Shown here in pieces: positions 18,485 through 20,928 of a DNA stretch of 64,000 nt. The notes under the pieces are model-generated. The model had not been told where the DNA came from and did not search any database. It was given only the letters and a program-made list of their open reading frames with translations. The stretch's first letter is position 1, and the number at the start of each line of letters is the position of its first letter. Position numbers and translations under genes: made by a program. Source of the stretch: Candidatus Helarchaeota archaeon (lineage in GTDB: Archaea > Asgardarchaeota > Lokiarchaeia > Helarchaeales > RDOG01); assembly GCA_019058315.1 (NCBI GenBank), contig JAHPZH010000002.1, positions 512,001 through 576,000 on the forward strand, in the 5' to 3' direction.

Positions 18485-20299
18485 TTAATCGTTTGATTTC
18501 AAAGAGATGTAATAATAATCTCCGGTTTTTTTCTGTTTTCTATCTAACTCAGAATTTAATTTGTTTACTCTTGGTCTACCTGTACGTGGGTCTCGACGAA
18601 AAGTAATATTAACATTTTTTAAAAATAGGTTCATCCCACTTTTTAGATCGATTGGGGGAGTGGAAAAACCTTTCTTTCCCGATTCTCCTGAAAATACAAT
18701 TAATGAATCACTTAAAAAATCAACAGCCAAAATATCATGTTCAACTATAAAGGCGGCTGCTTTTTTATTTTCTATAAACCTTTTTATTGTTTTTGTAATT
18801 GTTAAACGTGCATAGCTATCAAGGTAAGCTGAAGGTTCATCAAATAGATAAACATCGGCTTCTTTAGAAAGAGTATTAGCAATTGCAAGTTTTTGAAGTT
18901 CTCCTCCTGATAATTCTGTAATATATCTTTCTTCTAATTCAGATAAATTAAATGGTTTTAGAATTTGAGATTTGTAAATTGCGGTATCAAAATTTTTACC
19001 AGCTGATTCTCTTAGAAGCATTTCAACTGTGCCATCAAATTCAATATTCAAATATTGTGGTTTTAATGCTATTTTAAGTTCTTTTTCTAATGGTTCACCT
19101 ACATCAGGGGGTAATTCACCACCCAACAATTTAATAAATGTAGATTTTCCCAATCCATTTTTACCAACTATCCCTATAATTTCTCCTTTGTGAATAACTC
19201 CTTCATTAATCTTAAGATAAAAATCTCCCAGTTGCTTTTCCATTTTATTATAACTTGTTATCACTTCTGTACTTTCCCATCCTCCTGAACCTAGTGGATT
19301 TAAATGAAATCTTATAGGTTCTGTTCGAAATCGAATATTTTCATCTGGCAAAAAGCCATCCAAATAAAGGTTTATACCCTCTCTAACACCATGAATATGG
19401 GAAACAATTCCATAAACTGCTGGTTGCCCATATAGGATATGGACATAATCGCTAAGATAATCGCAAATTATTAAATCATGTTCTACAATAATTACCGTCT
19501 TTCCCAATGTTGCTAATTGATGGAGGACTTTAGTAACTTCTAACCGCTCTTTGACATCTAAATAACTGGATGGTTCATCAAAAAAGTATACATCTGCATC
19601 TCGTGCAATAACTGCTGCTATTGCAGTTCTTTGCAATTCTCCTCCTGACAAAATATTTAAGTTTCTATTCCAAAATTCTTTCAAATTTAAGGATTCTTTT
19701 AATTCATTAATTACTCCTCGCTCATTCACCTTCTCTAAAAGCTCTGATACAACACCTTTTGTAATTTCTGGTATCTTGGTTACATATTGGGGTTTATGTA
19801 CTAATTTTACTTGATTTTCTGAAATATCTTTAAAATAATTTTGAAGTTCTGAACCCCGAAAATTACGAATAATTTCATTCCATTCTGGCGGTTCTTCTGG
19901 ATGCCCTAAATTTGGCTTGATTTCTCCTGCTAGAATTTTTATGGCCGTAGTTTTGCCAGAACCATTAGGTCCTATTAACCCAATTATTTTTCCAGCTTTA
20001 ACAATTGGAAGGCGGAAAAGTACAAAACCTCCTAAATCAAATCTATGAACAAAATCACTCTTTAATTCCTCTGCTATATTTGCAATAGTAATTGCGTGAA
20101 ATGGACATTTTTTAACACATATACCACAGCCAGTACAAACATTTTCAATAATTCTCGCCTTATTAATATCCTCATCCAAAATGATTGCTTCTGCCCCAGA
20201 ACGAACTACAGGACAAAAACGTATACAAGGGACTTTTTGAGTCGGAGGAGCACATTTCTCGGGTCTGCAGCGATCTGGTTCAATTACGCCTACTCTCAA
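18485..20299 (-). CDS. rli: Ribosome recycling ATPase ABCE1 (RLI)
   Basis: N-terminal 2x[4Fe-4S] domain (CTGCGICVKKCPF), two ABC domains (GPNGSGKTT, GKNGLGKST, LSGGELQ, DEPS) and TFRRDP..GRPRVNK. Confidence 0.98.
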   Translation of the reverse strand: MRVGVIEPDRCRPEKCAPPTQKVPCIRFCPVVRSGAEAIILDEDINKARIIENVCTGCGICVKKCPFHAITIANIAEELKSDFVHRFDLGGFVLFRLPIVKAGKIIGLIGPNGSGKTTAIKILAGEIKPNLGHPEEPPEWNEIIRNFRGSELQNYFKDISENQVKLVHKPQYVTKIPEITKGVVSELLEKVNERGVINELKESLNLKEFWNRNLNILSGGELQRTAIAAVIARDADVYFFDEPSSYLDVKERLEVTKVLHQLATLGKTVIIVEHDLIICDYLSDYVHILYGQPAVYGIVSHIHGVREGINLYLDGFLPDENIRFRTEPIRFHLNPLGSGGWESTEVITSYNKMEKQLGDFYLKINEGVIHKGEIIGIVGKNGLGKSTFIKLLGGELPPDVGEPLEKELKIALKPQYLNIEFDGTVEMLLRESAGKNFDTAIYKSQILKPFNLSELEERYITELSGGELQKLAIANTLSKEADVYLFDEPSAYLDSYARLTITKTIKRFIENKKAAAFIVEHDILAVDFLSDSLIVFSGESGKKGFSTPPIDLKSGMNLFLKNVNITFRRDPRTGRPRVNKLNSELDRKQKKTGDYYYISLKSND

Positions 20300-20360
20300 T
20301 TATTAACACCATAAAAAGTAAAAGAAATATCAAAATAAGATATAAATTTTATAAAAAGGG

Positions 20361-20434
20361 TGAGAGAAATTGTCAGAACTCATAAAGATACCATCACAAA
20401 TCAGGTTGCTCCAAGTCGTCATTCATTTCTCTCA
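20361..20434 (-). ncRNA. Box C/D guide sRNA (candidate tRNA-Met C34 2'-O-methylation guide)
   Basis: Minus strand reads C box ATGACGA, guide CTTGGAGCAAC, D' CTGA, ttt, C' GTGATGG, guide TATCTTTATGAGTT, D CTGA. It is enclosed by a perfect 10-bp terminal inverted repeat (tgagagaaat 20361-70 / atttctctca 20425-34). Confidence 0.88.
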
Positions 20435-20526
20435 TATAATGATTTCAAATATAACTTATTAAATGTATTGAATCAAATAAATCAGTAGAAAAGATAATAA
20501 TAAGATGTGTGAATAAAAATAGAAGA

Positions 20527-20928
20527 TTAAGAGCCTTTTACATTCATAATTTTCTTTTTATTGAGAATTGTCCAATACTCGGCAGTAGCTCCTTCGACAA
20601 GTTTACTTTTGATTTCCTCATCAGTTGGCATATCCACTTCAAACGTTTCATATGTGCTATTATCCATAAGTTGAACAGTATCGGGTGTTATTGATGTAAT
20701 TATACCGGTACTTTTATCTATCAGTGGAACCTCAACATTTGAATGAGATGGAAAAGTAAGGCTCCTTTTATTACGATCAAATAAACCTACACATACTACT
20801 CGAACTTTTGCGTGACCATGTTTACCTGATTTTGAAACATCAACTGAAATTATTCTGCAAGGTTCATCATTGATTAATACAAATCGATTTGCTTTTAATG
20901 ACCCTGCTGATTGTTGTTTTTTAGACAT
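20527..20928 (-). CDS. eif5a: Translation factor aIF5A/eIF5A
   Basis: Hypusine motif SKSGKHGHAK and VQLMD..TYETFE. Confidence 0.98.
   Translation of the reverse strand: MSKKQQSAGSLKANRFVLINDEPCRIISVDVSKSGKHGHAKVRVVCVGLFDRNKRSLTFPSHSNVEVPLIDKSTGIITSITPDTVQLMDNSTYETFEVDMPTDEEIKSKLVEGATAEYWTILNKKKIMNVKGS

Follow-up and report, generated by a model that had tools for sequence, protein, structure and literature searches.

The gap between the genes for aIF5A and ABCE1 in a Helarchaeales genome contains a conserved 74-nt sequence that quite probably specifies a separately transcribed box C/D guide RNA, the D guide of which is directed to C34 of unspliced elongator pre-tRNA-Met. The locus lies within the window, the whole stretch of 64,000 nucleotides that was analysed. 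In the proposed mechanism, the sRNA would assemble with L7Ae, Nop5, and fibrillarin; the D guide, CUUUAUGAGUU, would pair with nucleotides 30 to 38 of elongator tRNA-Met and with the first two nucleotides of its anticodon intron; fibrillarin would 2'-O-methylate C34 on the unspliced precursor; and the splicing endonuclease would remove the intron after methylation. Expression of the sRNA, assembly of the ribonucleoprotein, methylation, and the order of methylation and splicing are what we infer from sequence comparison. The evidence consists of features observed in the genomes: the anatomy of the RNA, its conservation, its complementarity to the precursor, co-variation between guide and intron, and genes for the three proteins.

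Anatomy and rarity of the sRNA locus

The RNA, including its terminal stem, occupies positions 20361 to 20434 of the window on the minus strand, and the coordinates given in the preliminary description were exact. All of the elements described here are on that strand. The 5' strand of the terminal stem, UGAGAGAAAU (20425 to 20434), is followed by GA and is the perfect 10-bp complement of the 3' strand, AUUUCUCUCA (20361 to 20370), as had been claimed from the sequence. Box C, AUGACGA (20416 to 20422), has C in place of U at position 5 and is identical in 8 of 8 close sequences. It is followed by the 11-nt D' guide spacer CUUGGAGCAAC (20405 to 20415), with an invariant core, GGAGC, and variable flanks, and by an invariant box D', CUGA (20401 to 20404), after which comes UUU. 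Box C', GUGAUGG (20391 to 20397), begins 3 nt past box D' in a k-loop-like layout, and its UGAUGG is invariant. The 14-nt spacer between box C' and box D (20377 to 20390) includes the conserved 11-nt D guide (20377 to 20387), which is identical in 8 sequences and pairs with a pre-tRNA-Met encoded elsewhere in the genome (G000:C6). Box D (20373 to 20376), followed by CA, is CUGA in 7 of the 8 sequences and CGGA in the remaining one (L061).

The preliminary description had reported four boxes at canonical spacing. The four boxes are present, and boxes D and D' both read CUGA, but boxes C and C' each differ from RUGAUGA at one position, and the spacing is 11/3/14 rather than 12/12. Archaeal C/D guide spacers are usually 12 nt, and the spacer between box C' and box D is 14 nt here, with conservation over 11 nt only. 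The RNA has k-turn potential: a pair is available between G(-2) and the C immediately 3' of box D, the 10-bp stem follows, and both GA dinucleotides are present. The fifth guide nucleotide counted from box D is position 20381 of the window, which faces the C of CAU, the register that had been stated at the outset.

The sRNA sits in a 227-nt gap between the genes for aIF5A (20527 to 20928) and ABCE1/RLI (18485 to 20299), and all three are on the minus strand. A TATA-like box, TTTAATAA (20456 to 20463), a putative promoter element, lies 21 nt upstream of the 5' strand of the stem, and a T-run (20353 to 20357), a putative oligo-T terminator that is kept in 6 of 8 sequences, comes right after the 3' strand. 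Together these elements suggest that the sRNA is its own transcription unit, and the spacing of the TATA-like box would fit an archaeal start at the first nucleotides of the stem.

The whole genome (5.8 Mb, 30% GC) was scanned with a strict four-box C/D pattern, and first-order Markov genomes served as the control. The number of matches by itself is at chance level, with 11 in the genome versus 9.5 in the simulations. When no more than two box mismatches were allowed, only the sRNA locus and one other site (C5:103555-103608) were left, compared with 0.5 per simulated genome, and when a stem of at least 6 bp was also required, the sRNA locus was the only match in the genome and there were no simulated matches. 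The locus is the best candidate in the genome for boxes plus stem. No match was found in Rfam at the gathering threshold, and the sRNA is therefore filed under no Rfam family. Among 11 sub-threshold matches in E-value mode, 10 were to C/D families on the strand of the sRNA. The best of them, to sR23, had an E-value of 0.004 and scored 20.6 bits versus a gathering threshold of 45.

Conservation in Helarchaeales

Relatives were sought via contigs encoding an aIF5A 77 to 96% identical to that of the window, and eight such contigs were fetched. The close aIF5A homologues carry the labels Candidatus Helarchaeota or Helarchaeales, which bears out the Asgard assignment of the preliminary description. 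The eighth contig ends at aIF5A; the other seven cover the gap, and all seven have the gene order PIN/APH gene, aIF5A, gap, ABCE1, with the sRNA inside the gap. In the alignment of eight sequences, box C, box D', the UGAUGG of box C', and the 11-nt guide are all invariant. The 3 nt on the 5' side of the guide (20388 to 20390, guide positions 12 to 14) and most of the D' spacer are variable. Across seven of the eight syntenic sequences (L057, being near-identical, was excluded), mean pairwise identity is 0.88 within the RNA versus 0.65 to 0.69 in the flanks. One strain has 27 differences over 801 bases, none of which is within the sRNA. Contigs from four other sediment runs yielded only near-identical strains and strains like L063.

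By eye, the terminal stem is kept in each of the close copies, for example as 9 bp in L058 and as a perfect 8 bp in L061, and a formal count of covariation in the terminal stem was not statistically significant. The TATA-like box reads (T/A)TTAATAA in 7 of 8 sequences, and L061 has ATATAATAA at that place. The T-run after the stem is TTTTT in five sequences and TTTT in L063, and L060 and L061 are without it. Two further conserved blocks lie beside the sRNA (20490 to 20526 and 20300 to 20352 of the window): CTTATTTTTATCTTT, just past the aIF5A stop codon, and TTATATCTTATTTTAA, ahead of ABCE1. The former is probably the terminator of aIF5A and the latter the promoter of ABCE1.

More distant homologues were found with a covariance model (R1) and with looser patterns. 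In two genomes of one family (f2; G002 and G004), the guide is ACUCUAUGAGUU or differs from it only slightly, and box D is UUGA. In both, the homologue is beside aIF5A, on its other side and on the opposite strand. Two genomes of another family (f3; G005 and G006) have the guides GCCUUAUGAGUG and AUCCUUAUGAGUU and GUGA as box D. By eye, the terminal stem is 9 bp in G004 and only 4 bp in G002. UAUGAG is kept in all of the distant homologues, in a register that places guide position 5 on C34. Box D varies among the homologues (CGGA, UUGA, or GUGA), with GA always retained; the variants were seen at L027:1993-2080, at approximately 2040-2125 of L025 and 180-260 of L282, and at L061:2143-2195. One homologue uses CGAUGA as box C. 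Consensus-based scanners miss these homologues because only the GA dinucleotides are fixed.

Several other searches returned nothing of the kind. BLAST of the locus against 40 relatives gave AT-rich noise only, a first pattern search among GTDB relatives found no homologue, and a strict C/D scan beside aIF5A in 29 relatives gave no match because the boxes differ in those relatives. The class-wide searches covered 161 genomes for each pattern and 151 for model R1. Neither two patterns nor model R1 identified a convincing homologue in the 127 to 135 genomes of family f4, and the sRNA was not found in G001 or G003. A match in G017 was rejected as a homologue because it is a bare hairpin, and pattern matches in L085, L090, and L093 were set aside because they look like gene starts. 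With its box and stem anatomy, its rarity in the genome, and its conservation in relatives, the locus bears out the earlier proposal of an unannotated box C/D sRNA.

Predicted pairing with elongator pre-tRNA-Met

Standard tools detect few tRNAs in this genome because its tRNA genes are heavily interrupted. A recent preprint describes heavily interrupted tRNA genes in Asgard archaea, and methylation guides are not mentioned in it. Three tRNAs with a CAU anticodon were located. One is initiator-like (A1:U72) and lies within a cluster of approximately 22 tRNA genes on C3. Another, the host initiator, is found on C5 and contains three introns (L111, G000:C5:113800-114040). The third is of the elongator type (G1:C72) and lies at approximately G000:C6:124873-125068 (L110, G000:C6:124850-125090), with four introns, in the D loop, D stem, anticodon loop, and T loop. 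Both L110 and L111 escaped ARAGORN, and neither was among the loci listed by the Rfam tRNA model. A search of the genome for tRNA-Ile2(CAU) found none, and from its GCCG-type acceptor stem we provisionally take the tRNA on C6 to be Met rather than Ile2(CAU).

The elongator precursor reads GACUCAUAA, followed by the anticodon intron AGUUA. A target exceeding the 9 to 10 nt of pairing required in the preliminary description is present: the guide and this precursor form exactly 11 contiguous base pairs, 10 of them Watson-Crick and 1 G-U, with C34 at position 5. The last two pairs fall on the intron nucleotides AG, and the end of the duplex coincides with the end of guide conservation. The intron reading that had been proposed for the guide stands for these two nucleotides and not for AGAUA. 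At the outer three positions, the guide differs from one relative to another. The genes for the sRNA and for its target are on different contigs of the assembly. Among 2,000 shuffled guides, 28 scored as high as the real guide at some site in the 8.7 kb of stable RNA when pairing at position 34 was not required, and requiring position 34 makes a chance match far less likely. The genome also encodes fibrillarin, with Nop5 adjacent to it, and proteins of the L7Ae family. The target and the conservation support the main proposal of the preliminary description, that of an Asgard C/D sRNA with a D guide placing C34 of a CAU tRNA in the methylation register. Within the clade, tRNA-Met shows a further complementarity: 7 nt at the end of the D-stem intron (AUAC, with GCG from the exon) could pair with the last nucleotides of the anticodon intron.

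Comparison of guides with introns across relatives suggests that the first intron nucleotides are read. The tRNA-Met orthologues in two genomes of the window's clade, one of them the assembly that carries sRNA copy L061, both carry the same target sequence as the window's genome, with AA/AGUU at the start of the intron (the slash marks the junction), and G001 has AA/AGGC, a target that also matches the guide. In family f3 (G003, G005, G006, and two JGI contigs), tRNA-Met has AA/GGUA. A metagenome scan returned only two f3-type tRNA-Met genes, a 14-mer scan of genome contigs was unspecific among the matches listed, and the regions upstream of tRNA-Met ran into contig ends in five fetched loci. 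Guide positions 10 and 11 are UC opposite intron AG in the window's clade and CC opposite intron GG in G005 and G006. The f3 guides would have a mismatch at position 10 on the window's target. In the reverse combination, a G-U pair would preserve pairing of the window's guide on the f3 target, and the co-variation is therefore partly one-sided. That guide and intron both change, as seen in two f3 sRNAs independently, argues most strongly for reading of the first intron nucleotides, and if they are read, then the unspliced precursor would be the substrate. This co-variation offers sequence-level evidence for modification before splicing in a four-intron tRNA. A tRNA-Met that matches the guide was not found in G002 or G004, for which the guide predicts a G after CUCAUA.

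It is possible that the RNA is a true C/D guide acting on the CUCAUAA loop more generally, on mature elongator tRNA-Met, initiator tRNA-Met, or tRNA-Ile2(CAU), and that contact with the intron is incidental. By sequence reading, 9 pairs remain with the spliced elongator tRNA, 10 pairs, two of them G-U, form with both initiator precursors, and the loop sequence is common to all CAU tRNAs. However, guide positions 10 and 11 are invariant in the clade, whereas positions 12 to 14 drift; the same two positions change together with the first intron nucleotides in f3; and the initiator duplexes are weaker. An agmatidine-bearing C34 in tRNA-Ile2 would be an unlikely site of methylation. For these reasons action on the loop in general seems unlikely. 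Two further explanations would remove the guide function altogether, and both are much less probable. The locus might be an L7Ae-binding k-turn through which an aIF5A-ABCE1 transcript controls translation of the two factors. The locus does sit between two translation-factor genes on the same strand, and L7Ae is known to regulate mRNAs via k-turns (PMC5539422, PMC6298567). Against this stand the invariant antisense element, which is complementary to a tRNA in the register for methylation and changes along with it, and the TATA-like box and T-run belonging to the RNA itself, and in G002 and G004 the homologue lies beyond aIF5A on the opposite strand, making this explanation very improbable. The least credible explanation is that short motifs came together by chance in an AT-rich intergenic region. 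Loose C/D scans do yield match counts at chance level in this genome, but the synteny and the co-variation with the target count against it, and the conservation pattern rules it out.

The role of the D' arm in the proposed guide RNA is less clear-cut. Its guide had been linked to tRNA-Trp, with reservation, but the only tRNA-Trp found matches 6 nt, in a register that would point at C32, and that assignment is not supported. No rRNA or tRNA site pairing with the D' guide over at least 9 bp was found among the available stable RNAs, in which 16S rRNA is represented by its 5' 828 model positions only (G000:C12:50-897, where the contig ends and the 3' half is missing). Through its core GGAGC, the D' guide shows a weak match of 6 to 7 bp to an AGCUCC block within the pre-tRNA-Met anticodon intron. 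This block is kept in the anticodon introns of three of three tRNA-Met genes of the clade, approximately 10 nt downstream of the D target, and in the single matched genome pair an A-U pair at position 2 is replaced by G-C. We take the D' arm to be an orphan guide or else a second, weak point of contact with this intron.

Tentatively, the sRNA might hold the four-intron pre-tRNA-Met with two arms, with D on the loop and the start of the intron and D' on AGCUCC, so that the intron would serve as a landing pad recruiting the methylation machinery before splicing. If true, such a landing pad would give the abundant tRNA introns of Asgard archaea a function. The two-arm reading is weakened because chance alone is estimated to give a 199-nt precursor a 6-bp match in approximately one case out of four, the covarying pair has mismatches on both sides, the intron itself contains a GGA with which the UCC of the block can pair, and the D' arms of the f3 homologues, by reading, do not match their own introns. 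The same observations bear on a non-catalytic or chaperone role, in which the sRNP would grip pre-tRNA-Met with both arms and order or assist intron removal, with methylation secondary. The conserved block facing the D' core, the A-U to G-C change, and the four introns of the target would fit that role, but the chance expectation, the flanking mismatches, the pairing within the intron, and the unmatched f3 arms all stand against it, and we consider it decidedly improbable.

Comparison with known guides, and other loci

The Helarchaeales sRNA is predicted to work like the haloarchaeal sR-tMet. Both are free-standing C/D RNAs of approximately 75 nt for Cm34 of elongator tRNA-Met, this target being a prediction for the Helarchaeales RNA. 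The haloarchaeal RNA reportedly has an unusual C'/D' motif, whereas the C'/D' of the Helarchaeales sRNA looks like an ordinary k-loop. In haloarchaea, sR-tMet guides Cm34 of elongator tRNA-Met (PMC4033218; cited in PMC6601510), and the title of Joardar et al. 2011, as listed in PMC4033218, indicates that it acts on pre-tRNA. Complementarity and register in the Helarchaeales RNA fit C34 of elongator pre-tRNA-Met and covary with the intron at the sequence level. It differs from sR-tMet in belonging to a different phylum and in having a non-consensus box C (AUGACGA), a 10-bp terminal stem, and a target with four introns. The likeness that we propose is one of function, and descent is not claimed.

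Some box C/D sRNAs of Pyrococcus are predicted to act at position 34, their targets being tRNA-Met, tRNA-Trp, and two tRNA-Leu, and sRNAs that target tRNAs usually have one orphan guide (PMC7994747). In these Pyrococcus sRNAs the spacers have the canonical length of 12 nt, and terminal stems are short or missing. The Helarchaeales RNA shares with them the arrangement of one arm on the wobble position of a single tRNA and the other arm typically an orphan. The Pyrococcus sRNAs are from hyperthermophilic Euryarchaeota, and the accessible text describes no intron reading by their Met guide (PMC7994747). In humans, SNORD97 and SCARNA97 guide Cm34 of elongator tRNA-Met (PMC6601510). Unlike the Helarchaeales sRNA, these are eukaryotic RNAs within introns of protein genes, and two guides cooperate. 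An 11-nt guide dictated by its target cannot show homology to them. In Nanoarchaeum equitans, a C/D-like RNA lies within the intron of elongator tRNA-Met (PMC3491384). As in the Helarchaeales system, that RNA and the guide in the pre-tRNA-Trp intron connect a C/D guide with both the intron and the anticodon arm of one and the same tRNA. In those cases, however, the guide is the intron, whereas here it is a separate gene that would read only the first intron nucleotides.

No description of Asgard box C/D sRNAs was found in the searchable literature. The mechanism of guiding modification to C34 is itself ordinary, and what is new is its lineage, for which no published C/D sRNA was found. Asgard archaea are the closest archaeal relatives of eukaryotes, and the same arrangement there would fill a phylogenetic gap. 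Continuity of the Cm34 guide-target pair thus becomes a testable idea.

Two other loci in the genome are worth recording. The second C/D candidate from the genome scan (L112:56-109; G000:C5:103555-103608, minus strand) has four perfect boxes and lies approximately 1.9 kb downstream of the 23S rRNA gene. No match of at least 9 bp with good Watson-Crick content was found for its guides in the available rRNA. The tRNA cluster on C3 (G000:C3:627504-631783) packs approximately 22 tRNA genes into 4.3 kb, some of them 1 nt apart. Most of these genes encode CCA, and their GC content is 40 to 51% versus up to 62% in the scattered host tRNAs. The cluster duplicates the host Asn, His, and Cys tRNAs in addition to including the initiator-like tRNA-Met. 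It may be a tRNA array of mobile or viral origin, or else the host's main set of tRNA genes.
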